A stretch of DNA of 64,000 nt from Thermoleophilia bacterium (GCA_027493445.1 JAOSKU010000001.1:3609845-3673844); one strand, 5' to 3'; shown: positions 10,826 to 49,459, counted from the stretch's first letter. Translations and numbers: made by a program. Notes: generated from the sequence alone by a model not told the origin.

Positions 10826-12711
10826 GTGCGGATGCAGGCCGAGCGCTCCGTGCAGTCCGCCGATGGCCCCCGAGGCTCCGCGCGCCTGGTGCGCATCACG
10901 GGGGCGTTGGCGCAGGCCCGCCCCATGCGGGAGGCCGCCCTGTACGAGCTGGCGCACGTTGGCACGCGCCGGCTGTTGGGGGAGGTCATCCGGCTCGAGG
11001 GCGACATCGGAACACTTCAGGTCTACGAGGACACCACCGGCCTGACCGTGGGCGAGGAGGTCGTGCTGACGGGGCGCGCCTTGACCGCGGAGCTGGGCCC
11101 CGGCCTGCTGGGTTCTGTTCTCGACGGCGTGGGACGACCCCTCACCCGGATGGCTGAGGAGGCGGGGGACTTCGTGCAGACAGGGATGGCCACGCCCACT
11201 CTCGACCGCGCGCGTCGCTGGGGCTTCACGGCCACCGCCGAGGCAGGCGATCGGGTCGAGGGGGCGACCTGCTGGGAATCGTGGAGGAGCGTCCCGGATT
11301 CGAGCACAGGGTCCTCCTTCCCCCCGAGACCGCCGGGATCGTCGCTGAGATCCGCTCGGGAGAGCTCTCGGTGGACCAGGCCTTCGGCCGACTGGTGGAC
11401 GGTACGGAGTTGAGCCTGGTGCAGCACTGGCCCGTGCGCCGCCCCCGTCCGGTGGCCGAGCGGCTGCCGGGAGACCGACCGCTTGTCACCGGCCAGCGGG
11501 TCTTCGACCTGCTCTTTCCAGTGGCCGAAGGAGGGAGTGTGGCTGTGCCCGGCGGGTTCGGCACCGGCAAGACGGTCATCGAGCAGTCGCTCGCCAAGTT
11601 CGCCGCCGCACAGATCGTGGTCTATGTGGGCTGCGGCGAGCGGGGCAACGAGATGGCCGAGGTGCTGACCGAGTTCCCCCGACTCACCGACCCTCATACC
11701 GGCCGGTCCGTGATGGACCGTACCGTGCTGGTCGTGAACACCTCGAACATGCCCGTGGCCGCCCGGGAGGCCTCGGTCTACCTGGGTATCACGGTGGCCG
11801 AGTTCTACCGGGACATGGGCTACACGGTGGCCGTCATGGCCGACAGCCTCTCGCGTTGGGCCGAGGCCCTGCGCGAGATCGGGGCCCGCCTGCAGGAGAT
11901 GCCGGGAGAGGAAGGCTACCCCACCTACCTGGGCAACCGCATGGGCAAGTTCTACGAGCGTTCGGGGCGGGTAGTGGCCCAGGGCCGGCCGGAGCGGACC
12001 GGAGCTTTGACCTTCATCAGTGCCATCTCGCCGCCGGGGGGCGACTTCTCCGAGCCGGTGACCCAGGCCTCCCTGCGTGTGGCCGGGGCCCTGTGGGCCC
12101 TCGATGCGACCCTGGCCCATCAACGCCAGTTCCCGGCCGTGGATTGGGAAACCAGCTACACGCTCTACGCCGACGCTACCGCTCCCTGGTTCGCCGATGC
12201 CGCCGGGAAGGACTGGACTCATCTGCGCCGGGACATACTGGAGCTCCTGCAACGCGAGCGGGAGCTTCGGGAAATCGCCGGCCTCATCGGCGCCGAGGCC
12301 CTGCAGGATGCCGACCGTCTGGTGCTGGAGGCGGCCGCGGTAGTGCGTGAGGCGGTTCTGGGGCAGAACGCCTACGATCCCAACGACGCCGTATCGCCCC
12401 TCGGCAAGACCTACCGGCTGGCCTTTCTTGCACGCTCGCTCTACGAGTCCGCCCGCGACGCGCTGCGGGCGGGGGTTCCCTTCGAGGCGCTCGACCTGGG
12501 CCCGGCCAGGCACACCCTGGTGGTGGCGCGCTACGCTCCGCCGGAGGAGCTGGAAGCGGCGTTCGCTCGAGTCGAGGCGGCCATCGACGCGCTGCGGGCG
12601 GCCGGGTCGGAGGTGACGGCGGAGGCGCCCCCTTCCGCGCGGGAGCCCCCCTTCGCGCCGGAGCCCCTTCCCGTTCTGGAGTCCCCTCCCGAACGGCGGG
12701 CGGACGCATGA
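10826..12711 (+). CDS. atpA: V/A-type ATPase catalytic subunit A, split by an apparent -1 frameshift near 11261-11264
   Basis: ORFs 10826..11413 and 11281..12711 together give a complete A subunit with Walker [10 protein letters not shown]. The join DRVEG|[15 protein letters not shown] needs one extra G in the run gagggggcgac. Confidence 0.85.
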
Positions 12712-14093
12712 AGCCTCTGCAGCGCACGTACCGCGGGGCCCGAGCGGCCAGCGGGCCTCTTCTCTACCTGGAGGGTGCGCGCAACGTCTGTCTGGGGGAA
12801 TGGGTGGCCATCGAGGTCCCCGGTCAACCAGCCCGCCGGGGGCAGGTCATCGACGCGGGTGAGCGGGTCACCGTGATTCAGGTGCTGGAAGAGACCCTGG
12901 GCCTGCCCCCGGCTCGGGCCGAGGTGACCCTCACAGGGGAGACGGCCACCACGGTGGTGGGGCGCGAGCTTCTTGGCCGGGCCTTTACCGGCACCGGGTC
13001 CCCGGCCGACGGGCTGCCCGGCCCGGTGGGCGAGGCCATCCGGCCCATCTGGGGCGCGCCCATGAACCCGTCCCGGCGGCAGCGGCCCTCGGACTTCATC
13101 GAGACGGGTGTGTCGGCCATCGACGGCATGAATACCCTGGTGCGGGGACAGAAGCTGCCGGTATTTTCCGGCTCGGGCCTGCCCGGGCTGGAGCTGGCTT
13201 CGCAGATCGTGGAGAACGCGCGGGCTCCGCGCGGCGAGGCCTTCGCCGTGATCTTCGTGGCCATCGGCATTACGGCTCGGGAGACCCATGCCTTCCTCGA
13301 CCGGTTCGAGCGGAGCGGGGCCATGGAGAGGAGCATCCTCTATCTCAACGAGGCCCGCGACCCCACCATCGAGCGGTTGCTAGCTCCCCGGGTGGCTCTG
13401 ACCCAGGCCGAGTTCCTGGCCTTCGAGGCGGGCATGCACGTGCTGGTGGTCATGGCCGACATCACCCACTATTGCGAGGCCTTGCGCGAGATCGCCACCG
13501 CCCGGGAGGAGATACCGGGTCGCCGGGGGTACCCCGGGTACATGTACACGGACCTGGCGGGCATCTTCGAGCGGGCCGGTATCATCGCCGGCCGCGAGGG
13601 CTCGGTCACGCAGATCCCCATCCTCACCATGCCGGACGATGACATCACCCATCCCATCCCGGATCTCACAGGTTACATCACCGAGGGACAGCTGGTGCTC
13701 AGCCGTGACCTTCACCGCCGGGGTGTTTTCCCACCCCTGGATGTCCTGCCCTCCCTGTCGCGCCTGATGAACGCCGGGATCGGGCCGGGCAAGACCGCTC
13801 CCGAGCACCGCGAATGGGCCAACCAGCTCTACGCCGTCTACACTCGGGGCCGGGAAGCGCGGACGATGGTGTCCATCGTGGGGGAGGCCGGCCTCGGTGA
13901 GTCCGACCGGCGCGCCCTGGAGTTCGCCGAGCGGTTCGAGCGGGAGTTCGTCGATCAGGGCGAGCGCCGCCGCTCCATCGAGGAGACCTTGGAGGTCGGC
14001 TGGGCCCTCCTGGAGACTCTGCCGCGTGAGGACCTGCTCCGCATCAGCGACCAGGTGTGGGAAGCCCGCCGGGCCCGCCGGGAGGCGCCATGA
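12708..14093 (+). CDS. atpB: V/A-type ATPase subunit B
   Basis: 461-aa non-catalytic B subunit. The start overlaps the atpA stop. Confidence 0.9.
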
Positions 14094-14722
14094 GCGGCCT
14101 GCACGGCGTGGCGGCCACCAGGATGAACCTTCTGCGGGTCCAGCGCCGTCTCTCTCGGGTGGAGAAGGGCGTGGAGCTGCTGCGCCGCAAGAGGGAGGCT
14201 CTGGTCACCGAGCTTTTCCAGCTGGCCCGTCCGGCGATCGACTCGCGGGCCCAGATCGAGGAGCGGACGGCCCGAGCGTATCCCCTGCTTCTCGAGGCCT
14301 TGGCTGCCCACGGGCGCCCTGGTCTACGCGCCCTCGGCTGGCCGGCCCGGGACCTCACGGTGGATGTGCGCGCCGGCCAGGTGTGGGGCATCTCCGTGTC
14401 CGACATCGTAGAGCGTCCGCCACTGAGCCGTAGTCTGGCCAGCCGGGGCACGCCGCCGGGTAGCACAGGGGTCGCGACCGCCCTGGCGGCCGGCGAGTTC
14501 GAGATCTTGGCCGACCTGCTCCTGGACGCCGCTCCGCGCGAGATGCTCATCCGCCGCCTGGCGGAGGCCCTGGCTCAGACGTCGCGACAGGTGAACATGC
14601 TCGACCTGCGGGTGGCGCCGGCTCTGCGCGATCAGATGGCCGCCGTGCGCCGTACCCTTGAGGAACGCGAGCGCGAGGAACACCTGCGCCTCAAGCACCT
14701 CGTGCGCGCCCGGGCGGGGTAG
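14090..14722 (+). CDS. atpD: V/A-type ATPase central-stalk subunit D
   Basis: [38 protein letters not shown] is a typical D-subunit N-terminus. ATG at 14090 overlaps the atpB stop as ATGA. Confidence 0.85.
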   Translation: MSGLHGVAATRMNLLRVQRRLSRVEKGVELLRRKREALVTELFQLARPAIDSRAQIEERTARAYPLLLEALAAHGRPGLRALGWPARDLTVDVRAGQVWGISVSDIVERPPLSRSLASRGTPPGSTGVATALAAGEFEILADLLLDAAPREMLIRRLAEALAQTSRQVNMLDLRVAPALRDQMAAVRRTLEEREREEHLRLKHLVRARAG

Positions 14723-15045: not shown

Positions 15046-16861
15046 ATGAAGGTCGCAGTCTACATCTGCCAGGAGAACCCAGAAGCCGGCGGGGGGGTGA
15101 ATCTCGACTCTGTCGCCAAGTACGCGGCCAATCTCCCCGACGTGGCCCAAGTGAGGTCGCTGGGTGTGCGGCCGAAGCTGCTGCCGGAGCCGCTTGCTGC
15201 CGAGATCGGCCGGCAGGGTTTGGACAGGCTCGTCATAGCGGGGACTCGCCCGGCTACTTCAAGCCCGCTTTCACTCGAGCCATGGCGCTCGCCGGCGGGG
15301 ATCCGGGGGAGGTGCGGCTGGCATCATTTCGCGAGCACGGGGCCATTTCGTACGACGAGACCGAACGGGCTAAGGCCATCCTCGCCTGTGCGGTCAGCGG
15401 AGTTTCCTTTTGGCTCGCGGCTGTGCCGAAATTCACAACTGTGCATCCCGACACGCTGATCGTCGGTGCAGGGGTGGCGGGGATCCAGGCGGCTCTGGAG
15501 ATCGCGGAGGCGGGCAAGCATGTGTACCTAGTCGAACGGACCGGCACCATCGGAGGCCACATGGCCATGTTCGACAAGACCTTCCCCACCCTGGACTGCG
15601 CCGCGTGCATCCTTACACCGAAGATGGTGGCCGTCGGACAGCACGAGATGATCGAGCTCTTCACCATGAGCGAGGTCGAGGTAGTGGCCGGTGTGCCCGG
15701 CGATTACAGGGTGACGATCCGCCGGCAGCCACGCCGCGTGGACCAGGACGCCTGCGTGACTTGTGGCGCCTGCTCGGAAGCCTGCCCGGTGACGGTGCCG
15801 AGTGAGTTCGATTGCGGCATCGCTTCGCGAAACGCCATCTACATGCCCTTCCCTCAGGCGGTTCCCAACGCGTACTTGGTGGACGCGGCCTCGTGTCGCT
15901 ACGTACAGTCCGGTGGCGAGAAGTGTGGGGTGTGCGCCCGCAAGTGCCCCAAGGAGTGCATCAATCTCGACGAGGAAGTGGAGAGGGTCGAGGTCAAGGT
16001 GGGCAGTATCGTCCTCGCCACCGGCTACGACGTCTACGACGCCACCCGCATCGAGCGTTACGGCTACGGGGTTTACCCCAACGTGCTGACCGCTCTCGAG
16101 TTCGAGCGGCTCACGAATGCCTCGGGGCCGACCGGAGGTCGGATCGTGACCCGGACCTTGCGCCACGACAAGCGCGCCAAGGCCGACCAGTGGGTGTTCG
16201 ACCTCGCGGGTTCGGCGCCTCGAAGCGTGGCCATCGTGCACTGCGTCGGTTCCCGGGACCACAACCATAACCCGTATTGCTCGCGGGTCTGCTGTATGTA
16301 CTCACTCAAGTTCGCCCACCTGGTGAGGGAGAAGCTCCCCGACGCAGAGTGCTACGAGTTCTACATCGACATGCGGGCCTTCGGGAAGGGCTATGAGGAG
16401 TTCGCGGAGCGCATCAAGCAGGAGGGGACCTTCGTGGTGCGGGGGCGGTCGGCCAAGGTCACCGCCGCCGATGGCCGCATGCTGATCCGGGGGAGGACAT
16501 TCTGAGCGACCAGCTCCTGGAGTTCCCGGTGGACATGGTGCTTCTCGCTGTCGGCCTCGTCCCAGCGCACGGGTCGGAACTCACGGGCGCGTTGCTGGGT
16601 GTGGGCTGCGACGTGGATGGATGGTTCAGCGAGCTCGACTACAACGGCGATCCCACAGACACGGAACGAGGCGGGGTGTTCGTGGCCGGCGCGTGCCAGG
16701 GTCCCAAGGACATTCCCGACACCGTTGCCCAGGCCTCCGCGGCGGCCGCCGGTGTGCTGAAGAGCATCGCGAGCGGACGGGGCTACGGCAGTCTGAGCAG
16801 CCTTGCGCTCAGCGACGTCGAGGCGCGAGCGCGAGCGCTCGCCGCGGGAAAGGGGACCTGA
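15046..16861 (+). CDS. hdrA: Heterodisulfide-reductase subunit A-like flavoprotein 1 with an inserted 2x[4Fe-4S] ferredoxin domain, split into three frames by two single-G deletions near 15241 and 16491
   Basis: Cys-containing N-terminal domain MKVAVYICQ. FAD-binding GxGxxG (LIVGAGVAGIQAALEIAEAG). Inserted CVTCGACSEACP and CGVCARKCP motifs. C-terminal GVFVAGACQGPKDIPDTVAQASAAAAG. The joins LVIAG|DSPGYF and MLIRG|EDILSDQ each need one more G. Confidence 0.8.
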
Positions 16862-18012
16862 TGGCAACGCGGGTGAACCCCAAGCTCATCGACGACCTGG
16901 AGCGCTACGGCGCCCAGGACGTCTCGAAGTGCTACCACTGTGGCAATTGCTCGGCCGTGTGTCCCTTCTCGCAGGGTACCCGCATCTTTCCGAGGCGGTC
17001 CATGCGCCACCTGCAGCTTGGCCTGGAGAAGCGGCTGGAGGGAGACCTCGAGCCCTGGCTCTGCTACTACTGCGGGGAGTGCTCCGAGGACTGCCCCCGG
17101 GAGGCGGAGCCCGGCGAGACCATGATGAGCTTGCGGCGGTGGCTGACCTCCCGGTACGACTTCACCGGGATCTCGCGGCTCTTCTACCTCTCCTGGAAAG
17201 CGGAGCTCGGGGCTATCCTTCTGGTGGCCCTTCTCGCGGCGATCGGCTTCCTGTTGCTGGGGTTCCTGCACGGCAACATCGGGGTCTATGACGGTCCCGG
17301 CGCCTTCCTGCCGAGCCATATCGTGCACTGGTTCGACTGGAGCATGGCCGTGGTGCTGGTGATCCTTCTCGGTATCAACTGCGCCCGCATGTGGTGGTTC
17401 ACACTGGGCAGGGAGGGTCGCGACGCGGGTTTCCACGTTCCGCTGCGGGAATACCTGACCCGCGCCTATCTACTCCCCTTCCATTTCGCAACCCAGGCGC
17501 GCTATGCCCGGTGTGAGCGCAAGCGTCCGTGGGTGGTCCACCTGGCGCTGATGCTGAGCTACGTGACCATGCTGGTGCTCATCATGTTCTTCCTCGGCTT
17601 CATGCAGGCGGGGCCGGGCATCGACTGGCGGGTGCACGCCTTCGGCTACGCTGCGGCCCTGGGGTTGGTGGTGACCACCGCCTACGCTATGTGGGGCCGG
17701 GCAAAACGCACGGAGATGCGCTACAAGCACTCTCATGAGTCCGACTGGATCTTCCTTATCCTGCTCTTCGTGGTGGCGGGCACGGGAGTCCTCCAGCACA
17801 TCCTGCACCGCGCCGACCTCGACGTGGCCGCCAACGTCGTCTACGTGATGCACCTGATGGGCGTCGTGCCCATGCTGGTGCTGGAGGTGCCGTTCGGCAA
17901 ATGGGCCCACATGGCCTACCGGCCGCTGGCCATGTACTTCGCCGATCTGCAACCACGGGCGGTCCCCTCGAGATCGCGGGCCGAGACCGCGCGACGTGCC
18001 GCGGCGAGCTGA
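16861..18012 (+). CDS. QmoC/HdrE-like membrane subunit: N-terminal 2x[4Fe-4S] domain fused to a NarI/HdrE-type cytochrome-b-like membrane domain
   Basis: CYHCGNCSAVCP and CYYCGECSEDCP motifs are followed by 5-6 predicted TM helices carrying conserved His (HIVHWFDW, HAFGY, HLMGV). The TGATG start overlaps the upstream stop. Confidence 0.65.
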   Translation: MATRVNPKLIDDLERYGAQDVSKCYHCGNCSAVCPFSQGTRIFPRRSMRHLQLGLEKRLEGDLEPWLCYYCGECSEDCPREAEPGETMMSLRRWLTSRYDFTGISRLFYLSWKAELGAILLVALLAAIGFLLLGFLHGNIGVYDGPGAFLPSHIVHWFDWSMAVVLVILLGINCARMWWFTLGREGRDAGFHVPLREYLTRAYLLPFHFATQARYARCERKRPWVVHLALMLSYVTMLVLIMFFLGFMQAGPGIDWRVHAFGYAAALGLVVTTAYAMWGRAKRTEMRYKHSHESDWIFLILLFVVAGTGVLQHILHRADLDVAANVVYVMHLMGVVPMLVLEVPFGKWAHMAYRPLAMYFADLQPRAVPSRSRAETARRAAAS

Positions 18013-18023
18013 GGGAGAACGCC

Positions 18024-19774
18024 ATGAAACAGCACAGGACCGGCGTATACGTGTGTGCTTGTGGGACCAACATCGCCAAGGTGGTGGACTGTGACGAGGT
18101 GGTGCGCGCAGCTGAGGGGATCCCCGGGGTTGCGGTGGCCACCACCTACAAGTACATGTGCTCTACGCCCGGGCAGGAGATGATCATCGCCGACATCCAG
18201 GAGAAGGAGCTGGACCGGGTAGTGGTGGCCTCGTGCTCGCCGCGCATGCACGAGATCACCTTTAGAAAGGCCGTCAATAAGGCCGGTCTCAACCCCTACT
18301 ACCTACAGATGGCGAACATCCGCGAGCAGTGTAGCTGGGTACACGAAGACGGGGCCGAGGCCACCCAGAAGGCTATCGACCTGGTGCGCGCGGCTGTCGG
18401 CCGGGTGATTCTACACGAGCCTCTCGAGAGCCGCACGGTAGCCATGTGTCCGAACACCCTGGTCCTGGGTGGGGGCATCGCGGGCCTTACTGCGTCCCTG
18501 GAGCTGGCCGACGCGGGCTACCAGGTGTACCTGGTGGAGAAGGCGGACCATCTGGGCGGCAACCTGGCCCGGGTGGACCTGACCGCCCCGTACCTGGACT
18601 CGGCCCACGATCTCCTGCGCGAGCGGATCCATCGGGTGGCGGGTCACCCTCAAATCGAGACATTCCTAGGCGCTGGGGTGAAGTCGCTCGAAGGCTACGT
18701 GGGGAACTTCACGGCCACCGTGGTCCTGCCGGGGGCGACGGTGCCCGGCCGGCCGCCGGAAGCGGTGCCGATCGATCTTCGCGGGTTCTCGAGGTTGGGA
18801 GCGTGATCGTCGCCACCGGCTACCAGGAGTTCGACGCCTCGCGGATCACCCACTTCGGCTACGGCAAGTTGCCGAATGTCATCACGTCGTTCGAGTTCGA
18901 GCGGATGGTGCGCGAGGGGCGCATCGAGACGGCCGAGGAACGCCGGCCCCAGTACGCCGCCATCCTGCATTGCGTCGGCAGCCGGAGCCTGGAGTTCCAC
19001 GCCTATTGTTCGCGCGTCTGCTGCATGACCGCCCTGAAGTACGCCCACGAGCTGAAGTCCGCCGTCCCCGGCTGTTACGTCAGCGACGTGTACATCGACA
19101 TGCATGCCTTCGGCAAGGGGTGCGAGGATTTCTACCGGCGGAGCTCCGAGGTCAAGACCCTCTTCATCATGTATGGAAAGAACGACTACCCGGTGATCCG
19201 CAAGGCGGAGCCGGGGGACGACTGCGAGATGCTGATCGAGGTGAGCGAGCAGCTCTCGGGCGAGCGCATCGAGATCCCCGCTGACCTGGTGATCCTCATG
19301 GTGGGGATGGAAGCCCGGGCGGACGCCGCCGAGGTCGCCCGCCTGGTGCGCATCAGCCAGGACAAGGACGGGTGGTTCATCGAGAGCCATCCGAAGCTCG
19401 ATCCGGTGGCCACGACCACCGAAGGGGTCTTCATCGCCGGCACGTGCGCGGCTCCCAAAGACATCCCCGACTCGGTGGCCCAAGCTCGGGCCGCCGCCGC
19501 CCGCATCCTCGGCAAGATCGCCAAGGGGATCATCGAGGTGGATGCCGTGTTCGCCGAGATCGACGAGGAGGCGTGCTCGGGGTGTCGCATCTGCAACGAG
19601 CTCTGCCCGTATGGGGCCATCGAGTACAAGGCCGACGTTAAGCGAAGCCGGGTCATCTCTGCCCTCTGCAAGGCCTGCGGCGCCTGCGTAGCGGCGTGCC
19701 CGTCCGGCGCCATCAGAGCTCGTCACTTCACCGACGAACAGATCCTTGCCGAGATCGAGGGGGTGCTGGCATGA
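18024..19774 (+). CDS. hdrA: Heterodisulfide-reductase subunit A-like flavoprotein 2 (no inserted ferredoxin; C-terminal 2x[4Fe-4S]), split by one apparent single-G deletion near 18785
   Basis: Cys-rich N-terminus MKQHRTGVYVCACG...CSTPG...CSP. FAD-binding LVLGGGIAGLTASLELADAG. C-terminus GVFIAGTCAAPKDIPDSVAQARAAAA then CSGCRICNELCP and CKACGACVAACP. ORFs 17901..18806 and 18446..19774 join if the cgcggg run has one more G. Confidence 0.8.
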
Positions 19775-20319
19775 ACACCGACCTCGCCACCGCGGTCGAC
19801 GGCGCGGCTGCGGCCGTGGCCGACGGCGGCCGGACCGCCACGATGGTCGACGGGCATACCCGGCGCTCGGGGGCGGGCGCCGCGGCGTCGTTCCAGCCGC
19901 GCATCGTCGGGTTCCTGTGCAACTGGTGCTCCTACGCCGGCGCCGACCTTGCCGGCACGAGCCGCACCCACTACGCCGCCAGCGTGCGGGTGGTGCGGGT
20001 CATGTGCTCGGCCCGCGTCGACCCGACCTTCGTCCTGAAAGCCCTCGCCGAGGGAGCGGACGGGGTCCTCATCTGCGGGTGCCATCCAGGCGACTGCCAC
20101 TACTCCGAGGGCAACTACAAGACCATGCGCCGCTTCCCATTGCTCAAGAAGATGGTGGCCGATCTCGGCATCGAGGACGAGCGGGTGCGGCTCGAATGGG
20201 TGAGCGCCAGCGAAGGGCAGCGGTTCGCCGACGTGGTCAACGACATGACGCAGCGGCTGCGTGCACTGGGTCCCAGCAAGATCAAGATCGCGCTGGCTAC
20301 CGATCGCGCGGAGAGGTGA
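19771..20319 (+). CDS. mvhD: MvhD-like hydrogenase/heterodisulfide-reductase electron-transfer subunit
   Basis: IVGFLCNWCSYAGADLAG...LICGCHPGDCHY is the MvhD signature. ATG at 19771 overlaps the hdrA2 stop (ATGA). Confidence 0.8.
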   Translation: MNTDLATAVDGAAAAVADGGRTATMVDGHTRRSGAGAAASFQPRIVGFLCNWCSYAGADLAGTSRTHYAASVRVVRVMCSARVDPTFVLKALAEGADGVLICGCHPGDCHYSEGNYKTMRRFPLLKKMVADLGIEDERVRLEWVSASEGQRFADVVNDMTQRLRALGPSKIKIALATDRAER

Positions 20320-20322
20320 GTC

Positions 20323-21289
20323 ATGGGCGAGAGGAAGTTGCAGATCGCGCTGTACTGGGGAGCGGGGTGTGGCGGCTGCGACGTCGCCGTCCTCGATACC
20401 AACGAGTTCATCCTGGACGTGGCCGCACTTGCCGACATACGGCTCTGGCCGATCGCGGTGGACGGTAAGTACCGGGACGTGGAGGCGATGGCCGACCTGG
20501 AGCTCGACCTCACTCTGTTCAACGGAGCCGTGCGCAACTCCGAGAACGAGCACATCGCCTGCCTTCTGCGCCAAAAGAGCAAGCTCCTGGTGGCCTTCGG
20601 CTCGTGCGCGTACATGGGGGGCATCCCTGGGCTGGCCAATCTGGTGACGAAGGAAGAGATCTACGATTGCGCCTATCTCCACAACCCCTCCATTGAGCCG
20701 GGCAACACCACGGTCCCGCTGGCGCGCACCTCGGTGAACGGTTACTCGCTCGATATCCCCCGCTTCTACCGGAGGGTGTACAAACTCGACGACGTCGTGG
20801 ATGTGGACTACTACCTGCCCGGTTGCCCCCCGGCGGCCGACCAGGTGAAGGCCGTCCTTGGAGTGATCGCATCCGGGGCCGTGCCGCCAAAGGGCTCGGT
20901 GGTGGGCGCGGGGGACCGGGCGCTATGTGACGACTGCACGCGCGCCAAGACCGAGAAGAAGGTCAAGGAGTTCAAGCGTCCCTGGCAGATCATGGCCGAT
21001 CCGGAGACCTGCCTACTGGAGCAGGGGGATCCTGTGCTCGGGGCCGGCCACTCGCTCGGGGTGCGGGGTGCGCTGCCCGACGAGCGGCATCCCCTGCCGG
21101 GGGTGCTACGGGCCGCTGCCGGGAGTAGTCGATCAAGGAGCAAAGCTGCTTTCGGCGGTGACCTCGATCATCGACAGCAAGGACCCGGACGAGATCGACA
21201 CGATCCTCGCGGGCCTACCCGACTTCACCGGCTACGCCTACCGCTTCGGCCTCCCGGCCTCTCTCTTACAAAGGAGCGTCCGGCCATGA
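20323..21289 (+). CDS. mvhG: [NiFe]-hydrogenase small subunit (MvhG-like, group 3), with an apparent +1 G insertion near 21026
   Basis: N-terminus LQIALYWGAGCGGCDVAVLD. The C-terminus is found in ORF 20927..21289: ILCSGPATRSGCGVRCPTSGIPCRGCYGP. The join ETCLLEQG|ILCSGP needs removal of one G from cagggggatcc. Confidence 0.8.
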
Positions 21290-26944: not shown

Positions 26945-26992
26945 TAGGAGCGGCGCGAGGACCGTCCGCCAGGGCCAGCGCCTGAACCCGGG

Positions 26993-30648: not shown

Positions 30649-30649
30649 G

Positions 30650-36274: not shown

Positions 36275-36526
36275 GAGCACCCACCGGTCCCTCGCCTGCT
36301 CGGCTCGCGGGAGCCCGGTCGACGGTCTGAGCGCCCCCGGCACGGGCATCGAGGCGGGTTGAGTTGGCCGCCGCGGCGTGAGAAGCTCTCAGAGGCAGTT
36401 TGCGGCCGGGGCGGAGCATGTTCGGCCGGAACTTGGGCGGGTCGCCGGGCGATAAGGTGGCCGCCGCGTTTGTTGGTGCAGACCGTCGGGCTTCGACGGT
36501 GGAGGGGAGGATCCTTGGAGGAACGG

Positions 36527-37327: not shown

Positions 37328-38288
37328 GATCGGCGTCGAGGAGTATGCCGCCTTTCTGAGCGCGGAGTACCTGGAATCGTTCGTCGGATCCGGAGGTTCC
37401 GCTGTCAAGGTCGCCGTGGTTCCCGACCCACGCCACGCAGGCGCCCTTAACGACGACGTGATGCGGCGGGCGGGGCTCCGGAGCTACACGGCCGTCGCGG
37501 TGGATTCAGCCTGCACGCGCGTCCACCTGATCCAGCAGATCTTCTTCGCCGTGGCCGCCGAGCTCGATTGGGCGGCCTACGCCCGCAAGGTGGTCGACAC
37601 GATGCTGGTGCGGATCTATGGGGAAGACGTTCGGGGCGCCGGGACCCTCGAACAAGTGGCTCGCCTGACCGAGCTCGACGAGACTCTTGTCCGCACCGAA
37701 GTCGGCAAGGCGCTTTCGAACGACGTCCTCCGGAACTACGCGCTGGCGAAGGACTTCCGCATCGCCATGATGCATCTCTGCCTGGCGGAGCTCGAACCCG
37801 AGGCGTACACCGAGGAAGGCCGGCTCGCCGTGCTCGAGTGGCTGCGGGGAGAGCTTCGGCTGATCTCGGCGCTCAAGGAGATGTCGATCTTCCAGCGGAT
37901 AGCCCGGCACAACGCCCGGTCGATACTCGCCTCGACGGCGCGTTGGGTGCACCAAGCGGGCTCCCCCGGCCTGTGTCTCGTGATCAACGCGGGCCGCCTG
38001 GCGGTGAGCCGGCGGGGCGACGTCGCCGACGAGGGCCTGTACTACACCCCCGCCGCCGTGATGGATGCCTACGAGGTGCTCCGGCAGTTCATCGACGCCA
38101 CCGATGAGATGGAGCACGTGATGATCCTGGTGGTCGCGCCCGCCGAGCTCCTCGATGCTGAGAGCAAGCGGGGCTTCGCGGCCTACCCGGCCCTGCGCAA
38201 CCGCATCTGGGACGACGTGCGCGACCGGAACCGAGTCAACCCGTGCGCCCCCATGGTGCGGATCGCCGGCGACAGGGGAGGGGGCTGA
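37317..38288 (+). CDS. Hypothetical protein B of the SNF2-associated cassette
   Basis: About 323-aa alpha-helical protein starting MVPEIGVEEYAAFLSAEYLESFVGSGGSAVKVAVVPD. No assignable domain. Its stop overlaps the start of gene C (ATGA-type). Confidence 0.5.
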   Translation: MVPEIGVEEYAAFLSAEYLESFVGSGGSAVKVAVVPDPRHAGALNDDVMRRAGLRSYTAVAVDSACTRVHLIQQIFFAVAAELDWAAYARKVVDTMLVRIYGEDVRGAGTLEQVARLTELDETLVRTEVGKALSNDVLRNYALAKDFRIAMMHLCLAELEPEAYTEEGRLAVLEWLRGELRLISALKEMSIFQRIARHNARSILASTARWVHQAGSPGLCLVINAGRLAVSRRGDVADEGLYYTPAAVMDAYEVLRQFIDATDEMEHVMILVVAPAELLDAESKRGFAAYPALRNRIWDDVRDRNRVNPCAPMVRIAGDRGGG

Positions 38289-39538
38289 TGATCGATCAGA
38301 TCACTGCGCTGCACGCCCGGCGGGCCATCGAAGCGCTGCGGGCCGGCGTGCCGAACCGGGACGCGGTTCGGGCCCTGGGTTTCGCCGACGACCCCCTGGT
38401 GGAGGAGCTCGACCGGCGGCTCGACACGCTTGCCGCCGGTGCGCCGGACGGCGGCGGTCTGCTGCTGGCGGCGGAGTTCGGAGGAGGCAAGTCGCACGCG
38501 CTCGAGTACCTGCGCCATCGCGCGCTCGAGCGGAACATCGCCGTCAGCAAGGTGGTGGTCTCCAAGGAGACCCAGCTCTTCGATCCGCTGAAGCTCTTCC
38601 GCTCGGCGGTCGACAACCTCGCGGTCGATGACCGCACGGGCGCTGTGTTCGACGACATCGCCACGACCCGCCTCAACAGCGACCCCCACCGCGATCGCTT
38701 CGCGGAGCTTGGGGCTTGGCTGCAGACGAGCGGGCTGAACGCCTGTTTCGCGGCGTCGATGTGGCTGTTCGAGCACGCTCGGGCGAACGCCGAGCTGCAG
38801 AGTCGGCTGGTGGCTTTCTGGGGTGGAGGCGCGCTCAAGCTTACGGAGCTGAAGAAGGACCTGCGGCTGTGCGGTCGGGCCGGCTACTATCCCTTGGAGA
38901 AGATCCGGGCCCGCGATCTCGCCCGGGAGCGCTTCGTGTTCTTGGCCCGGCTGCTCCAGGCGGCCGGTTACGACGGCTGGCTGCTCCTGCTCGACGAGCT
39001 CGAGCTGGTCGGGCGCTACAGCGTGCTCCAAAGAGCCCGCTCCTACGGAGAGCTGGCGCGCCTGCTGGGCCTGGACGATCAGGGCCCCATCCCAGGGCTT
39101 TTCACCGTGGGCGCCATCACCCCCGACTTCGAGTCCGCCGTGCTTCTGGGCAAGGACGACTACAACCAGATCGGGTTCCGGATGCGGGCCCGCGGCGACG
39201 CCGAAAGCGAGCTCACAGCCGTCCTGGCTGAGAGGGTCATGGAGCGGATGCGCGGCGGCTTCCTCTCGATCCGCCGGCCCGAGCAGGGAACCCTCGAGGC
39301 GACCTTCGCCCGTCTGGCCGCCGTCTACCAGGCCGCCTACGACGTCCCACCTGAAAGGCCCCCGGTCATCTTCGACGGGACCTGGCAGATGAGGGAGTAC
39401 GTCCGCTCCTGGATCACGCGCTGGGACCTCCGGCGCTTCGCGCCTGACCACGAGGCTCATCCCGTCGTCTTTCCCATGCCTGTGGACTACACCGAGAACG
39501 TCGTGCTCGAGCGCCCGCCCGAGAACGGCGAGGACTGA
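38288..39538 (+). CDS. P-loop NTPase C of the SNF2-associated cassette (KAP/DUF2791-like ATPase)
   Basis: Walker A LLLAAEFGGGKSHALEYL. Walker B WLLLLDELELVGRY. About 416 aa. Confidence 0.6.
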   Translation: MIDQITALHARRAIEALRAGVPNRDAVRALGFADDPLVEELDRRLDTLAAGAPDGGGLLLAAEFGGGKSHALEYLRHRALERNIAVSKVVVSKETQLFDPLKLFRSAVDNLAVDDRTGAVFDDIATTRLNSDPHRDRFAELGAWLQTSGLNACFAASMWLFEHARANAELQSRLVAFWGGGALKLTELKKDLRLCGRAGYYPLEKIRARDLARERFVFLARLLQAAGYDGWLLLLDELELVGRYSVLQRARSYGELARLLGLDDQGPIPGLFTVGAITPDFESAVLLGKDDYNQIGFRMRARGDAESELTAVLAERVMERMRGGFLSIRRPEQGTLEATFARLAAVYQAAYDVPPERPPVIFDGTWQMREYVRSWITRWDLRRFAPDHEAHPVVFPMPVDYTENVVLERPPENGED

Positions 39539-39549
39539 CCGAGGATCCC

Positions 39550-40110
39550 ATGGCGATACCTTTCCGGCCGTCGGACTCCGTCGAGCTCGGTGAGGCCGCC
39601 TTCCTGCGGGTCATCCCCTTCGTCGATGGCGGCGGCTACGACGGCGCACTCTTTGTGATGGACGCCCGGGGCGAGCCGGTGGAGTTCTGCTTCTCGCGCA
39701 TCGAGACGCCCCGTACCGCGCTGTGGCGGCCCAGAGATCTCGCCCGGCGGGCTACGGTGGAGCTGACTCAATCGCTGCTGGAGGTCTGCTCCACCTCTCC
39801 CCTCCTGCTGCTCGCCCGGGCCGAAGAGGTGGGCCCGGATGTGCTCGGGCAGGAGCTCCTGGTGGAGATCCCGGTCTGCCGGGTGGCTTCGTCGCTCTCG
39901 CTGGCGGTGGTGTCTCCGGAGGAGCGGGAAGAGAAGGCGTCGGGGGAGGAGGCTCTGCACCTCTTCTGGTTCCCCGAACCCCCTCGGGATGGGGAGCCGG
40001 CCCGGCTGGTGATCGACCGGCTGGCGGCTTCGGGGCTCCTCACGGAGCCCTTCGAGCGGGCCGAGGCCGGGCTGCGGGAAGTGAGAAGCGAGGGGCCGGA
40101 GGAGCCATGA
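39550..40110 (+). CDS. Hypothetical protein D of the SNF2-associated cassette
   Basis: 186-aa ORF with coding-like composition. Its stop overlaps the start of the SNF2 gene (ATGA). Confidence 0.45.
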   Translation: MAIPFRPSDSVELGEAAFLRVIPFVDGGGYDGALFVMDARGEPVEFCFSRIETPRTALWRPRDLARRATVELTQSLLEVCSTSPLLLLARAEEVGPDVLGQELLVEIPVCRVASSLSLAVVSPEEREEKASGEEALHLFWFPEPPRDGEPARLVIDRLAASGLLTEPFERAEAGLREVRSEGPEEP

Positions 40111-42316
40111 GCCTCTTCGCCCGCGGCCCCGGCCCGGCTCGGACCCTGCGCGCGCGGGTGCCTCACCCCCGGGGATCGACGGCAGTGCGGCTCACGGTGC
40201 CTCGTCTGAACGAGAGGGCCGGGACCGCCAGGAGCTTCGCCCCCGTGGCGCATCCCGGGGACACGCTGCGAAGCTCGGCGGGAGCCCTCGCGCTCGGGCT
40301 CGCCACCCCACCGGCCACGTCGATCGGGCTGCGCGCGGGGCCAACGGCCGGGGTGGGACCGCTCACCGGGCGGGCGGCGCGTGCGGGGCACGCGGCGGAC
40401 GGTGAGGGCGTGGCCGGCGAAGCACCCGCCGGAGTCGGTGCAGGCCGGGGGAGCGTCCCCGAGGATCGGGCCTCGCTTCGGGAGCGGCTGCGCGCCGTTC
40501 TGGCGCCTCCGGTGGTCGCGCTCCTTCCTCGGGCCGGGTCCATCCTGCACTGGCCGGCCTCGCTTCACCCGTTTCAGCTCGACGGCGTGCGCGTGCTCCT
40601 CGCCAAGCCTGAGGTCCTCCTGGCCGACGACATGGGCCTGGGCAAGACCGTGCAGGCCATCGCCGCCTTGCGCATCTTGCTGCACCGGGGCGACGTCGAG
40701 ACGGCACTGGCGGTCGTGCCGGCCAGCCTCATCCACCAGTGGCGGCACGAGCTCACCCGCTGGGCCCCCGAGCTGCGCGTCAGCACGGTGGCCGGCTCCC
40801 GGGAGCAGCGCTTGTTTGCCTGGACTGTGGCGGCCCACGTCTTCCTCGTGACCTACGAGACCCTGCGCTCCGACTTCTCCCCCACCCAGGTTCGGGGCCC
40901 CGGCGCCGGACTTGGGGTATCGTGCTGCTCGACGAGGCGCAGAAGGTCAAGAATCGGGATGCCGACGTCAGCGCGGTGTGCAAGATGCTGCCGCGGACAC
41001 GTTCGTGGGCTCTGACGGGCACGCCCCTCGAGAACAGCGTCGACGACCTCGCGTCGATCCTGGAGTTTCTGCAGCCGAACCCTCGGGGTGAGCCCGCGCG
41101 CCCCCTCCGTTTCGATGCCTCGCTGGTCCAGCGACACGAGCAGGTGCAGCTGCGGCGCCGGAAGATGGACGTGCTGGAGGAGCTCCCCCCGAAGACCGTC
41201 AACCGTGTGCTCCTCGACCTGTTCGGCGAGCAGCGGCGCTCGTACGAACGGGCGGAAGAGGAAGGCGTGCTCGAGCTGCGCCGCCGGGGAGAGACCATTC
41301 AGCTGACCCATGTTTTGCAGCTCATCACTCGGCTCAAGCAGGTCTGCAACTTCTGCCCGGAGACCGGCGCCTCGGCCAAGCTGGCCGACCTGGCCGGCCG
41401 GCTCGAGGTGCTTGCCGCCGAGGGCCACAAGGTTCTGGTCTTCAGCCAGTACACCGACGAGATCTTCGGCGTCCGGGCGATCGCGCACGGCATCGGCGCC
41501 TTCAAGCCGCTCACCTACACGGGGGAGCTCACCCTGCAGGAGAGGAGCCGCCGGATCGACCGCTTCAAGAGCGACCCGCTGCACCGGGCTTTGGTGCTAT
41601 CGTTGCGCGCCGGAGGGCAGGGCCTCAACCTGCAGGAGGCTTCGTACGTGGTGCACTTCGACCGCTGGTGGAATCCGGCCACCGAGCGCCAGGCGGAGGA
41701 TCGCAGCCACCGCCTGGGCCAGACCGTGCCGGTGACTGTTTACACGTACACCTGCGCCGGGACCATCGAGGAGCGCATCGCGCAGCTTCTGGAGGAGAAG
41801 CAGAGGCTGTTCGACCTGGTGGTCGACGAGGTCAGCATGGACCTCGACCGCCTGCTGACAGCGGAGGACCTGTTCGGACTCTTCGGACTGCGGCCTCCTG
41901 GCCGCCCCCGCGGCCCGGAGGCCAAGGGCCGGCGCTCGTTCGCGGAGATGACCGGCCGGGAGTTCGAGGAGTACGTGGCCGATCTCTTCCGGGCCCTGGG
42001 GTTCTCCGTCGAGCTGACGCCGGCCACCCGCGACCGGGGAGTGGATGCCGTCGCGCGCCACGTGGACGTGGTGGGCATCGAGACCAGCCTGTACATCCAG
42101 TGCAAGAACCATGCTTCGCCGGTGGGGGTGGAGACGGTCCGGGCCCTCATCGGGGCGGTCCCGGCGGACGATCCCGGGGCGAGGGCGGTGCTGGTGAGCC
42201 CGTCGGGTTTCTCGGGCGAGGCGGCTCGGCTGGCCCGGGAGCGCGGCGTGCAAGTGGTCGACGAGAGGGGCCTTCGCGTACTGGCGGAGCAGGCGGCTCG
42301 CGGCTGCGGGCGGTGA
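40107..42316 (+). CDS. SNF2-family helicase fused to a C-terminal Mrr-like restriction-endonuclease domain, with an apparent 1-nt deletion in the C-run near 40898
   Basis: SNF2 N-terminus LDGVRVLLAKPEVLLADDMGLGKTVQA. DEAQ box WGIVLLDEAQKVKN (in ORF 40739..42316). Helicase-C motifs LVLSLRAGGQGLNLQEASYVVHFDRWWNPATERQAEDRSHRLGQ. C-terminal EFEEYVADLFRALGFSVELTPATRDRGVDAVA...IQCKNH (Mrr_cat-like). The first ~130 codons are low-complexity, so the start is uncertain. Confidence 0.8.
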
Positions 42317-42463: not shown

Positions 42464-42687
42464 TTACAGGAGCTCTCTGAACTCCTCGATTGTTAGGCCC
42501 GCCTGCCGGATGATGGCCCGCAATGTGCCCTTGGCATCTCGCTGTGGTTGGGGACCGTGATTCTTCGGTGGGGACGGGCGACCTGTCGCATGACGATGTG
42601 GCTGCCTCTTTGTCTATCTTTCTCGTACCCGACCTTCGTCAGGGCCGTCACCGCCTCCCGGCCAGATACTCGTGGGAGAGGGCTCAC
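42464..42687 (-). CDS. hicA: HicA-family toxin (mRNA interferase), with an apparent 1-nt deletion near 42530
   Basis: N-terminus SGREAVTALTKVGYEKDRQRGSHIVMRQ. After a -1 correction the C-terminus reads KGTLRAIIRQAGLTIEEFRELL, the canonical HicA tail. Confidence 0.7.
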
Positions 42688-42896
42688 ACCGCTACCTCGA
42701 CAACCTCCTCGTTGATCGACGGCGGTATGGGTTCATCATGGGCTTTCAAGCTTTCCAGATAGGCCTGCATCGCTTCCTGGATGTTGCGCACAGCCTCAGA
42801 GCGCGTCTTCCCTTGGGAAATGCACCCGGGCAACGAGGGTACCTCCGCGACGAACATGCCGTCTTCGTCCTGTTCGACTAGGACGCGATACTTCAT
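42684..42896 (-). CDS. hicB: HicB-family antitoxin (UPF0150)
   Basis: MKYRVLVEQDEDGMFVAEVPSLPGCISQGKTRSEAVRNIQEAMQAYLES. The start is preceded by GGGAGG. It overlaps hicA by 4 nt. Confidence 0.75.
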   Translation of the reverse strand: MKYRVLVEQDEDGMFVAEVPSLPGCISQGKTRSEAVRNIQEAMQAYLESLKAHDEPIPPSINEEVVEVAV

Positions 42897-43820: not shown

Positions 43821-43825
43821 GTCTC

Positions 43826-44970: not shown

Positions 44971-46960
44971 ATGGGTTTCACTGTAGATATCGACACAGGG
45001 GGGACCTTCACCGACGGCCTCTTCGGAGACGGCACCTCCAGCCGGCGGGCGAAGGTCGATACGACGCCGCACGATCTCACCATCTCCCTCTTCAACTGTC
45101 TCTACGCGGGCGCCGTCGCGTTCGGTCTGGCGAACGTCAAGGACCTTCTGCGCGGATGCGACATCGTGCGCTGGACGAACACCATAGCCACGAACGTCGT
45201 GGCGGAGCGGAAGGGGCCCCGAGTGGGCCTGTTCGTCACGCAGGGGCATGAGCGGTCCCTCTACTCCGGTAACGGTGAGAGTCCTGCCATCGGACACGTG
45301 GTGGGCGCCGAGAACATCGTCGGCGTCAGTCAGCCCGTGGACGTGGAGGACCTGCTGGTGCGGCTGAAATCGCTCCTCGACCAGGGAGTGCGCCGCATCT
45401 GCATCAGCCTCAAGGACGGCCTGGAGAACAGCGCCGACGAGGCCGCCGTCAAGCGGGTGTTCGAAGACCAGTATCCCGACCATTACCTCGGTACCATCCC
45501 GCTCCTCATGGGCAGCGACATCTCCAAGCATCCCGACGACATGACCCGCACGCACATGGCCCTGCTGAACGCGTATGTCCATGGGCCGATGGCCCAGGCC
45601 ATGTTCAAGGCGGAGGACGATCTGCGCCACGAAGGCTTCATCAAGCCTCTCCTGGTGGGTCACATCAACGGGGGCGTCACCAGGGTTGCGAAGACCAAGC
45701 CGGTGGACACCATCGAGTCGGGACCCATCTTCGGCATCCATGCCGCCGCCTACTTCGCGGAGAAGTACGGGCTGCCGCGGGTGGTGACCTTGGATGTGGG
45801 CGGCACCACCGCCAAGGTGGGTCTGGTGCAGGACGGCAGGCCCGCTCTCACACGCCCGGCGGACGTGCTGGGCATACCGCTGAACCAGCCCATGCTCTCA
45901 TTGAAGAGCATCTCGCTTGGCGGAGGGACGGTCGCCCGGGTGGCCGGCGGCGACCTGACTCTGGGCCCGGACAGCATGGGCGCGTACCCGGGCCCCGCAT
46001 GCTACGACCTCGGGGGTACCGAGGCCACGGTCACCGACGCGTATCTGGTGAGCGGCTTCCTCGATCCCGACTACTTCGCGGGGGGACCAAACGGGTAGTG
46101 CTGGAGCGCGCCAAGAAGGCGTTGGCCGAGGCCGTTGGGGGCCCGCTGGGGATCGATGAGCACGCGGCGGCCGCCAAGGTGGCCGAGGTGGCGGCCGATC
46201 TGGTGGCCGACGACGTGCGCCGGGCGCTGGCCACGCTCCATGCCGAGGCGCCGGACCAGGTGCTCTTCGCGTTTGGGGGAACGGGGGCATCGCGGCCGCG
46301 CGTGTGGCCGAGAAGGCGCACATCCGGAAGGTCGTGGTCTTCTCGCTGGGCTCGGTGCTGAGCGCGTTCGGCTCCTCCGTGGCCGACGTCGCCCACACCT
46401 ACGAGTACGCCCCGTTCCTGCCGGTGGAAGACACGGATCGGGTCGAGGCCTTGATCGACGACATGTGGGCGGAAGCCCGTCGGGATTTCCGCGGCGAAGG
46501 CTTCGTCGAGGCGGACATCGTTGCCGACGTGGAGTTCACCGTGACCCAGTCCCCCGACCATCACGCCGTGGAGGAGCTGGTATGTGGCTTCGCAGTGGAC
46601 GGCCCGCCGGAGCCGGGCAAGACCGGTCCCTGCCTCACGGCTGCCGGTGTCCGGCCGGGCAAGGATTCACTAGTGGAGATCGTACGTCTGCGCGCCCGGG
46701 TGCCGGCGGTCAAGACCGCCCTGCTGGAGCAGGCCCCCGGTGACGAGGACCCGAGCGGCGCGCGCAAAGGCAGCCGCACGGTGTGGTGGAATGCGGCGGG
46801 CGGTGTGGATTCCGCCCTGTACGAGTGGGACCGCCTTCAGCCCGGCGCGCGCGTCGTAGGCCCGGCCGTCATCGAGGGCGTCGACACCACCTACCTCGTT
46901 CCGGAGCATTGGGACCTCAGAATCGACAGCTTTGGCAACGGACAGATGGAGAGGAGGTAG
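44971..46960 (+). CDS. Hydantoinase/oxoprolinase A-family subunit (acetone/acetophenone-carboxylase-like paralogue 1), split by two single-G deletions near 46083 and 46276
   Basis: N-terminus MGFTVDIDTGGTFTD. ORFs 44971..46098, 45999..46361 and 46304..46960 join as FAGG|TKRVVLERAKK and FAFGG|NGGIAAARVAEKAH if each G-run has one more G. Total length is about 663 aa. Confidence 0.75.
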
Positions 46961-46965
46961 GCACG

Positions 46966-47340
46966 GTGGGTAGACGAGTCGCCATCACCGAGTACCTCGA
47001 CGTCGACATAGACGAGATGAAGTGGCTGTGCTCCGCCTGCGGCGCACAGCTCATCGACGCCGACGACAACTACAAGAAAGGGTGCCTGGTCCACGCACGC
47101 GATCCGCGTGAGGTCCACAACCCCGTCTTCGAAGCCGAGTACAACTTCGCTCCCGACCCCGCCTGGGTGCGGATCATCGAGTTCTACTGTCCCGAATGCG
47201 GGGTGCAGGTCGAGACCGAATACCTGCCCCTGGGCCATCCCGTCACGCACGACATCGACCTTGACGTGGCCGCGCTGCGGGCGCGCGTCGACGGCGGCGA
47301 GCTGACGATCGTCGACAAGCGGATGGAGGTGAGTCGGTGA
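46966..47340 (+). CDS. Acetone-carboxylase gamma-subunit-like small Zn-binding protein
   Basis: ITEYLDVDIDEMKWLCSACGAQLID...EFYCPECGVQVETEY with two Cys pairs. GTG 46966 is preceded by GGAGAGGAGG. Confidence 0.7.
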   Translation: MGRRVAITEYLDVDIDEMKWLCSACGAQLIDADDNYKKGCLVHARDPREVHNPVFEAEYNFAPDPAWVRIIEFYCPECGVQVETEYLPLGHPVTHDIDLDVAALRARVDGGELTIVDKRMEVSR

Positions 47341-49459
47341 ACACGATCGACATCGATGCGGGCGGCACGTTTACCGACCTCGTCTTGCGGGTGGACGGGC
47401 AGACCGTTATGAAGAAGGCACCCACCACTCAGTACGACCTTTCGGTCTGCTTCCTCAACGTGATCGAGGAGGGCGGGCGCGAGCTGGAGATGGAGCTCGA
47501 CCAGCTGCTGCCCAAGATCGACCTCGTGCGCTACTCCACCACCGTGGCCATGAACCGGCTGATCGAGCGTAAGGGCCCGGCCCTTGGACTTATCACCACC
47601 GAGGGGCAGGAAGACTGCATCCTCATCGGCCGCGGCGCCCAGTGGGTGGACGGCACCACTCCCTCCGAGCGCCGAAACTTGGCCATCCAGCAGAAGCCCG
47701 AACCGCTGATCCAGCGCGAGATGATCGTGGGGGCCAGGGAGCGGGTCGACAGCCTGGGCAAGGTCGTAAGGCCGTTGGACGAGGCGGCCCTGCGCGAGAG
47801 CATCCACTACCTGGTGGATAAGGGGGTGCGTGGCTTCGTGGTCTCGCTCCTCTGGTCGCACGTGAACCCGGTGCACGAGAGGCGGATCAAGGAGATCATC
47901 CGCGAGGAGTACAAGGACTACACCTTGGGGCACCTGCCGGTGGTCCTGGCCGGCGAGGTCATCGGCCGCTTGGGCGAGTATCAGCGCACCATGACCGCGG
48001 TGCTCGACGCCTACCTGTTCCGGGCCATGCAGATCGAGCTCTCCGGTATGTGGGACACGTTGCGCGGTTACGGCTACCGGGGCCCATTCATGATGGTGCA
48101 CAACTCGGGCGGTATGGCCGAGGTGTTCAAGACCGACGCCGTGCGCACCTACAGCGCCGGGCCGGTGGCCGGTCTCATCGGGTCGCACCATCTGGCCAAG
48201 AAGCTGGGCTACCGCAACGTAATTGCCAGCGACGTCGGGGGGACGAGCTTCGACGTGGGCGTGGTGGTGGACCAGAACGTGCGCAATTACGAGTTCCGGC
48301 CCATCATCGATCAGTGGATGGTGGGCATGACGATGCTGCAGACCATCTCCATTGGAGCGGGGGCGGTTCGATCGCCCGGATCAACGAGTTGGTGGGCAAG
48401 CGGCTCGAGGTCGGCCCGCAAAGCGCCGGTTCCTACCCGGGCCCGGCCTGCTACGACCAGGGAGGAGAGGAGCCCACCGTTACCGACGCCGACGTGGTGC
48501 TGGGCTACCTGGACCCCGACTTCTACTTCGGCGGCCGCATGCTCCTGGACAAGGCCCGTTCGGCGGACGTCATCAAGACCAAGATCGCCGACCCTCTGGG
48601 CCTACAAATACCGGAAGCCGCCTACCTGATCCGCAAGATCGTCGACTCGAACATGGGCGCCGCCATCCGCAAGCAGATCCACCTGCGGGGTTACGACCCC
48701 AAGGACTTCGTCCTGTTCGGTTTTGGGGGAGGCGGCCCGACCCACCTCACCGGCTACATGGGGGACATCCCGAAAGCCGTCGTCTTCCCCTTCTCGCCCG
48801 TCTTCTCGGCCCAGGGTTCGTCGGTGATGGACGTGGTGCACGTTTACGAGCTCTCTCGCCGTTTCATGCTCATGGAGCCCATGACCCGCACCTTCGCCAC
48901 CGACTTCGCCGCCTTCAACGAGGCCGTGGAGTCGCTGATCGAGAAGGCGAAGAAGGAGTTGGCCGGCGAACGGCTGCCGGTGGACACGGCTGTGTTCCGT
49001 CTGGAGCTCGACATGCTCTACGGCGGGCAGGTGCACCGCAAGCGGGCGAGCTCGCCCCTGCTCCGGATCGAGTCGGAAGCGGATGCCCGCGCGGTCTACG
49101 AGGAGTTCGAGCGCGAGTTCAGCGAGACCTTCAGCCCCCTGGTGGTGCACCAAGACGGGGGGGTCTACGTGGAGAACTTCGTGGTCACGGCGAGTGTCCC
49201 CACCGAGAAGCCCGAGATCCGCACCTACACCGGCAACGGCGCCGGCCCGGAGAAGGCCCGCAAGGGGAGCCGCAAGTGCTACTGGGGCGAGGCGGGAGGC
49301 TTCGAGGAGACCGAGGTGTACGACTACAACGGGCTGGCGCCCGGTCACGCGATCGCGGGCCCGGCCATCCTCGAGACCGAGTACACCACCGTGGTGGTGC
49401 CCCCGGCATTCCACTGCAGCATCGACGAGCACATGTTCGGCCACATCGTGCGGGCCTGA
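47337..49459 (+). CDS. Hydantoinase/oxoprolinase A-family subunit (paralogue 2; acetone-carboxylase beta-like), with an apparent single-G deletion near 48361
   Basis: N-terminus MNTIDIDAGGTFTD. ORFs 47337..48629 and 48050..49459 join at TISIGAG|GGSIARINELVGK. Total length is about 707 aa. Confidence 0.8.

Follow-up and report, generated by a model that had tools for sequence, protein, structure and literature searches.

In a stretch of 64,000 nt from the assembly of a Thermoleophilia bacterium (GCA_027493445.1, JAOSKU010000001.1:3609845-3673844; hereafter the window), conserved genes such as atpA of the V/A-type ATPase, two hdrA-like genes, an mvhG-like hydrogenase gene and two hydantoinase-A-family genes are interrupted by frameshifts. 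We estimate a probability of about 95% that these broken genes are assembly artefacts, in which the consensus sequence miscalls the length of G/C homopolymers, and that the genes of the organism are intact. The insertions and deletions (indels) that break the genes were found in the window only, were concentrated in long G/C runs and came without substitutions, and reverting them restored the open reading frame (ORF) lengths of independent assemblies. We infer that the cause is an error of base calling or consensus building and not mutation. A frameshift in the toxin gene hicA is an exception, and is treated separately below.

Comparison of the window with independent contigs

Intact proteins of the window were used as exact-sequence queries, namely atpB, a ferredoxin-domain membrane protein, mvhA, a BrxD-like ATPase, hyuB, an OtsA-type glycosyltransferase and a CMAS-type methyltransferase. 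These look-ups matched six public assemblies: four Logan runs (SRR11288141, SRR11288142, SRR25580097 and SRR8536199) and two ENA assemblies (ERZ13693045 and ERZ13693099). According to blastn against the window, 14 Logan contigs from the four runs represent the same strain. The ENA contigs, one of 112 kb and one of 3 kb, represent a diverged strain with an identity of 99.2-99.8% (approximately 99.3%) and about 150 substitutions over 21 kb. The names of the ENA contigs are SPAdes-style, and at least two assemblers are represented among the six assemblies. The same-strain contigs covered 58,726 of the 64,000 nt (window positions 2710-33870 and 33964-61528), with one to four same-strain contigs and up to three diverged-strain loci per site. 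The rest of the window (1-2709, 33871-33963 and 61529-64000) contains G7 and C7 runs at 1650-1656, 1816-1822 and 63244-63250. Two of the diverged-strain loci, L003 and L008, were cut from one contig, ERZ13693045 NODE_1110. The metagenome contigs of the Joint Genome Institute (JGI) gave no match to a pattern of the atpA site that allowed either G5 or G6.

Over the 58,726 aligned bases, comparison with the same-strain contigs revealed one substitution and 17 sites at which the window has an indel, 14 of them deletions and three insertions. At all 17 sites every covering contig differed from the window, and none of the six assemblies shared any of these indels. The sites affected 13 genes and one intergenic spacer, spanned at least positions 3115-60351, and had a density of about 29 per 100 kb, or roughly Q35. 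The diverged-strain contig NODE_1110 covers eight of the error sites, and in each of them its run has the length that keeps the frame. Since this holds despite its approximately 150 substitutions, run lengths are conserved while substitutions build up.

The error rate depended strongly on run length. Errors were found in 1 of the 18,108 G/C runs with a true length of 1, in 1 of 6,869 runs of length 2, in none of 1,819 runs of length 3, in 1 of 421 (0.24%) of length 4 and in 1 of 135 (0.74%) of length 5. At a true length of 6, errors were found in 12 of 40 runs (30%), and at a length of 7 in one of six (17%). Hence, 13 of the 17 indels were located in G/C runs with a true length of at least 6, although such runs account for just 0.5% of the sequence compared (binomial P of about 2e-27). 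A/T runs contained no errors in the compared bases; A/T runs of 5 or longer hardly exist in this DNA of 68% G+C. G/C runs of at least 3 are so frequent (2,646 in 64 kb, or one per approximately 24 nt) that location in such a run carries little information when the window is considered alone; the significance comes from the comparison with the contigs.

We attribute the indels to the assembly because they are unique to one assembly, come without substitutions and show a jump in rate at a run length of six. Moreover, essential genes, non-essential genes and intergenic DNA were all struck, and the diverged strain was unaffected as well.

Two further indels were considered and rejected as errors. 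The intergenic indel at 14888 is real variation between strains, as the same-strain contigs match the window, while the intergenic indel at 26948-26951 appeared only against the diverged-strain contig. Both show that genuine indels of the lineage fall outside genes. The sole substitution, at 52629, affects the start codon of an AMP-binding-domain gene: the window has GTG where the same-strain contig L013 has ATG. Either a true polymorphism or a miscalled base could account for it.

Frame breaks within the window

The window has a G+C content of 64-72% and is densely coding, predominantly on the plus strand. Reading frames were followed with a six-frame plus non-coding Viterbi tracker, whose codon usage was trained on ten long ORFs of the window and which made no use of the initial annotation. 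Within apparent genes, the tracker switched frame at 11260/1, 15240/1, 16490/1, 18788/9, approximately 21106, 35902/3, 40916/7, 42534/5 (minus strand), 46085/6, 46279/80 and 48347/8. These switches correspond to the eleven frame breaks listed in the initial annotation, all of which exist according to the tracker, split Pfam profiles and the contig comparison (for hicA, according to the tracker and Pfam). Other switches, including those at 6667/8, 8521/2, 28601/2, 40104/5 and 59751/2, proved to be ordinary gene boundaries when set against the genes called in the independent contigs.

Three-frame translations gave a continuous conserved protein around the sites only when the frame was changed there. 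Pfam profiles were divided accordingly. The SNF2-rel_dom profile matched one fragment over positions 2-119 and the next over 124-286, the Hydantoinase_A profile was divided in hyuA2 into 1-153 and 127-288, and the MFS_4 profile into 4-172 and 252-361. In atpA, the ATP-synt_ab_N domain was found in one frame, and the barrel-sandwich, nucleotide-binding and C-terminal domains in the other.

Individual error sites

Changes are given below as true run length > window run length on the plus strand, and involve one nucleotide in a gene on the plus strand unless stated otherwise; the contigs named or counted are those that carry the true length. Near the 3′ end of the gene for an ATP-binding cassette (ABC) transporter ATPase (2396-3129), a C was deleted at 3116-3120 (C6>C5, listed as site 3115; one independent contig, L001). 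In atpA, encoding the A subunit of the V/A-type ATPase (10832-12711), a G was deleted at 11260-11264 (G6>G5), where L001 and L003 carry G6. The first hdrA-like gene (15046-16861) was broken twice by deletions, at 15240-15243 (G5>G4; three of three same-strain contigs and two diverged-strain loci) and at 16489-16493 (G6>G5; three of three same-strain contigs and three diverged-strain loci). A deletion at 18731-18735 (G6>G5) broke the second hdrA-like gene (18024-19774), with the true length present in four of four same-strain contigs and three diverged-strain loci. The mvhG-like gene (20323-21289), encoding the small subunit of a [NiFe]-hydrogenase, contained an insertion at 21024-21028 (G4>G5; three of three same-strain contigs and two diverged-strain loci).

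Two hypothetical genes and a DUF5752 gene followed. A G was deleted at 23667-23671 in a gene for a 132-amino-acid hypothetical protein (23549-23946; G6>G5; two of two same-strain contigs and two diverged-strain loci) and at 30151-30155 in a DUF5752 gene of 268 amino acids on the minus strand (29843-30648; G6>G5; three of three same-strain contigs and one diverged-strain locus). At about codon 30 of a gene for a 396-amino-acid hypothetical protein (30822-32013), a C was inserted at 30914-30916 (C2>C3; three of three same-strain contigs and one diverged-strain locus). The gene for an MFS transporter (34909-36274) contained an inserted C at 35894-35895 (C1>C2; L011 only), where the true sequence is no homopolymer. 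L011 also revealed the deletion at 36334-36338 (C6>C5) in an intergenic spacer, which is flanked by gene calls of that contig.

The gene for an SNF2 helicase/Mrr nuclease (40107-42316) had lost a C at 40879-40883 (C6>C5; L012 and L013), and its ORF is continuous after correction. The remaining sites were all compared with L013. Two deletions, at 46080-46085 (G7>G6) and 46275-46279 (G6>G5), broke the first hydantoinase-A-family gene, hyuA1 (44971-46960), and one at 48359-48363 (G6>G5) broke the second, hyuA2 (47337-49459). In sbcD, on the minus strand (59734-60891), a G was deleted at 60288-60292 (G6>G5) and two nucleotides were deleted at 60348-60351 (C6>C4).

The initial annotation had described systematic homopolymer errors, as opposed to pseudogenisation, in at least eleven genes between 10826 and 48629. 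Errors occur both within and beyond that interval, and both insertions and deletions are present (3 versus 14 sites), as it had stated. The list comprised eleven sites in nine genes, however, and was incomplete, as it missed seven sites at 3115, 23666, 30150, 30914, 36333, 60287 and 60347. Two of its positions were displaced, by 20-55 nt. The break in the second hdrA-like gene had been placed at approximately 18785, about 50 nt from its true location, and that in the SNF2 gene in a ‘ggggcccc’ motif at approximately 40898, about 20 nt away. All listed sites had been assigned to G/C runs of 3-7 nt, which is correct except for the MFS gene (C1>C2) and hicA, where there is no homopolymer. Ten of the eleven sites were specific to the window, with the other contigs in frame, and here the attribution to homopolymer error stands; at hicA it does not.

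Consequences for gene calls

In the other contigs, the affected genes were called intact, with 626 amino acids for atpA, 605 and 583 for the two hdrA-like genes, 321 for mvhG, 488 for mvhA, 454 for the MFS transporter and 663 and 707 for the two hyuA genes, and their products had complete Pfam domain architectures. When the indels were reverted, the window gave ORFs of 626 (atpA), 605 and 583 (hdrA) and 321 amino acids (mvhG), equal to the independent lengths. The truncated products of atpA, the second hdrA-like gene and hyuA1 as they stand in the window were found nowhere in exact look-ups across 153 billion gene positions. In the same look-ups, intact neighbours of the truncated genes occurred in two to five contigs each.

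The indels also fused and garbled genes. The deletion at 3116-3120 joins the ABC ATPase in frame with a MacB/FtsX permease gene (3140-6133), giving an artificial ORF of 1269 amino acids at 2324-6133; L001 has two separate genes there, an ABC ATPase of 244 and a MacB/FtsX permease of 997 amino acids. Similarly, the insertion in mvhG leads into a wrong frame that is open by chance and continues into mvhA (21286-22752), which gives an artificial ORF of 809 amino acids at 20323-22752. In sbcD, the two deletions lie 60 nt apart and sum to -3, by which the frame is kept and approximately 20 codons are scrambled. This stretch reads VTGEAERVRTASQRGRHGPGRCPLFDG in the window and VTGGRPSESERPLSVGGTAQVAAPLFDG when corrected.

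We propose that the consensus miscalls the length of G/C runs, chiefly by shortening runs of six bases to five. Errors of this kind commonly remain in long-read assemblies with little or no polishing, and in flow-based reads such as 454 and Ion Torrent. Each miscall is an indel of 1 nt (2 nt at one site), which inside a gene shifts the reading frame. The gene then appears as two or three separate ORFs, or neighbouring genes are fused where the wrong frame stays open in DNA of 68% G+C.

The hicA frameshift

The gene for the HicA toxin is located at 42464-42687 on the minus strand, with a 1-nt frameshift near 42530-42537. The HicA_toxin profile was split into positions 1-46 and 37-58, and the two fragments scored 42.5 and 16.4 bits. 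The spliced sequence scored 68.1 bits over profile positions 1-58. The context of the break, GAGATGCCAAGG, is not a homopolymer. Between 40878 and 46079, and thus across the break, contig L013 shows no difference from the window. Because an independent assembly shares it, we regard the hicA frameshift as genuine and biological, either a real pseudogene or a variant, and it should stay uncorrected. The gene forms a pair with hicB at 42464-42896 on the minus strand. Stop and start codons of the pair overlap (GTGTGA), and hicB (70 amino acids) is intact. In its presence in L013, its location outside homopolymers and the inactivation of the toxin only, the break resembles a genuine toxin-antitoxin pseudogene. 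This comparison fits one of the eleven listed sites, whereas the other ten behave differently.

Alternative explanations

Real gene decay, by frameshift inactivation in a mismatch-repair-deficient mutator or under relaxed selection, would account for broken genes without any sequencing error. Mismatch-repair defects are known to raise the rate of homopolymer indels, and the hicA frameshift, common to the window and an independent assembly, is a real one. Mutators, however, gather transitions as well, whereas 17 indels were accompanied by one substitution in 58.7 kb. The genes struck include those for the catalytic ATPase subunit, both HdrA-like proteins and the hydrogenase small subunit, and yet they show no in-frame stops or other marks of decay. 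Moreover, the 17 indels were absent from all contigs of the four runs and the two ENA assemblies, the truncated products of three of the genes are recorded nowhere, and an error rate of 30% at true length 6 against 0.7% at length 5 resembles a threshold in measurement more than a spectrum of mutations. We therefore regard gene decay as very improbable. Even less probable is a real clonal sub-lineage, such as a mutator in an enrichment culture, in which G/C 6-mers were contracted and the genes for the V-type ATPase, Hdr/Mvh and the hydantoinase family were lost almost simultaneously and without substitutions.

The run lengths in the window might also be genuine if the genes were subject to programmed recoding or phase variation, through ribosomal frameshifting, transcriptional slippage or slipped-strand switching. 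Homopolymers are a substrate for slippage, which was the one point found in its favour. Under recoding, orthologues should conserve the site, but the DNA itself is already in frame in every same-strain contig and in the 99.3%-identical strain. Under phase variation, lengths should vary, but at the level of contigs they were uniform among up to seven contigs per site, drawn from up to four runs and two ENA assemblies, with the window alone deviating. G/C runs of 4-6 are shorter than typical contingency tracts, and the targets are housekeeping or energy-metabolism genes, with one site intergenic. This explanation is hardly credible. We attach equally little weight to the converse, that k-mer or short-read assemblies over-call G/C runs and that the window is right. 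Illumina coverage is indeed biased at high G+C (PMC9262707). Against this, six assemblies from at least two assemblers are mutually consistent at every site, and their versions of the genes are full-length with complete Pfam architectures, whereas the profiles are split in the window. Short-read errors, moreover, are mainly substitutions and not consistent +1 calls in homopolymers.

Several points weigh against the artefact explanation that we favour. The insertions at 35894 and 30914 are located in runs with a true length of 1-2, which is atypical of homopolymer compression. About 70% of the true 6-mers are right in the window, such that miscalling is a stochastic process and not a strictly systematic one. 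One of the listed sites, that in hicA, is no artefact of the window. The sites at 3115, 35894, 36333, 46079, 46274, 48358, 60287 and 60347 are each compared with one independent contig, and the site at 11259 is backed by one same-strain contig and the diverged strain. The other contigs apparently come from accurate reads, as suggested by contigs of 2.8 kb to more than 20 kb without mismatches to the window and by the SPAdes-style names in the ENA assemblies. Finally, the evidence consists of assembled contigs rather than of raw reads.

Relation to known sequencing errors

The bias of the window towards deletions and its threshold at about six bases fit nanopore reads of the R9 type, and also low-coverage PacBio continuous long reads (CLR) or flow-based reads.

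The window resembles assemblies built from long reads only (Nanopore R9.4.1-type or PacBio CLR) in several respects. Its errors are indels with almost no substitutions, concentrated in homopolymers, with more deletions than insertions; single genes appear as neighbouring ORFs that lie in different frames; and there are approximately 29 sites per 100 kb. It differs in that its homopolymer errors were found in G/C runs only, which is expected given the near absence of long A/T runs, and in the proportion of true 6-mers called correctly, as might be expected after partial polishing or at moderate coverage. With 454 and Ion Torrent data, the window shares the dependence of indels on run length and the presence of both contractions and extensions. 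In contrast to such data, it is contiguous over at least 64 kb in an apparently uncultured organism of high G+C, which would be more typical of long reads.

The artefact is an ordinary one, of a well-described class. In bacterial genomes and metagenome-assembled genomes (MAGs) assembled from long reads only, the main leftover error is known to be indels in homopolymers, by which gene calls are fragmented (PMC9262707, PMC8812927 and PMC12007338). The remedy is polishing with short reads. A literature search yielded no paper that matched the run or assembly accessions.

Neighbouring genes

An Hdr/Mvh-type module (15046-23471) is located directly 3′ of the V/A-type ATPase operon (6268-14722). Its genes encode, in order, an HdrA-like protein, a ferredoxin-domain membrane protein of 383 amino acids, the second HdrA-like protein, MvhD (FlpD), MvhG, MvhA and a HycI-type protease. 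Among 80 distant atpB loci from GTDB genomes, hdr/mvh genes were not found beside the atp operon, and these loci were of no use for checking frames. Among GTDB species representatives, the closest atpB had an amino-acid identity of approximately 80%, and the best matches were MAGs of Gaiellales, Thermoleophilia and Gemmatimonadales. The species of the window thus seems to be without a representative genome in the GTDB set, although the same strain is present in at least four public runs.

A defence-like cluster at 36527-42316 consists of genes for a hypothetical protein of 266 amino acids, two adjacent BrxD-like P-loop proteins (323 and 416 amino acids), a hypothetical protein of 186 amino acids and the SNF2-Mrr protein. 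The two BrxD-like proteins match different parts of the BrxD profile. In the SNF2-Mrr protein, the helicase is fused to an Mrr nuclease domain and is ZorD/DpdE-like (PADLOC ZorD, E=1.7e-66). No complete known defence system was matched by this cluster. Further downstream, at 44971-51531, the two hydantoinase-A-family genes lie on either side of a small Acetone_carb_G gene, and a hydantoinase-B gene comes next, an arrangement that resembles acetone/acetophenone carboxylase more closely than a plain hydantoinase. Scans of the window for tRNA genes and Rfam families found nothing.

Implications

In total, 13 of the approximately 55 genes in the window are split, fused or locally garbled, which is a matter of data quality only. 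Errors of the kind seen in sbcD escape frameshift detectors. The assembly can be polished, as contigs of the same strain are present in SRR11288141, SRR11288142, SRR25580097 and SRR8536199. At the error density found here, pseudogene counts, completeness estimates and the metabolic reconstruction of this genome are distorted. The calls at stake include, for example, a working V-type ATPase and an electron-bifurcating Hdr/Mvh module.

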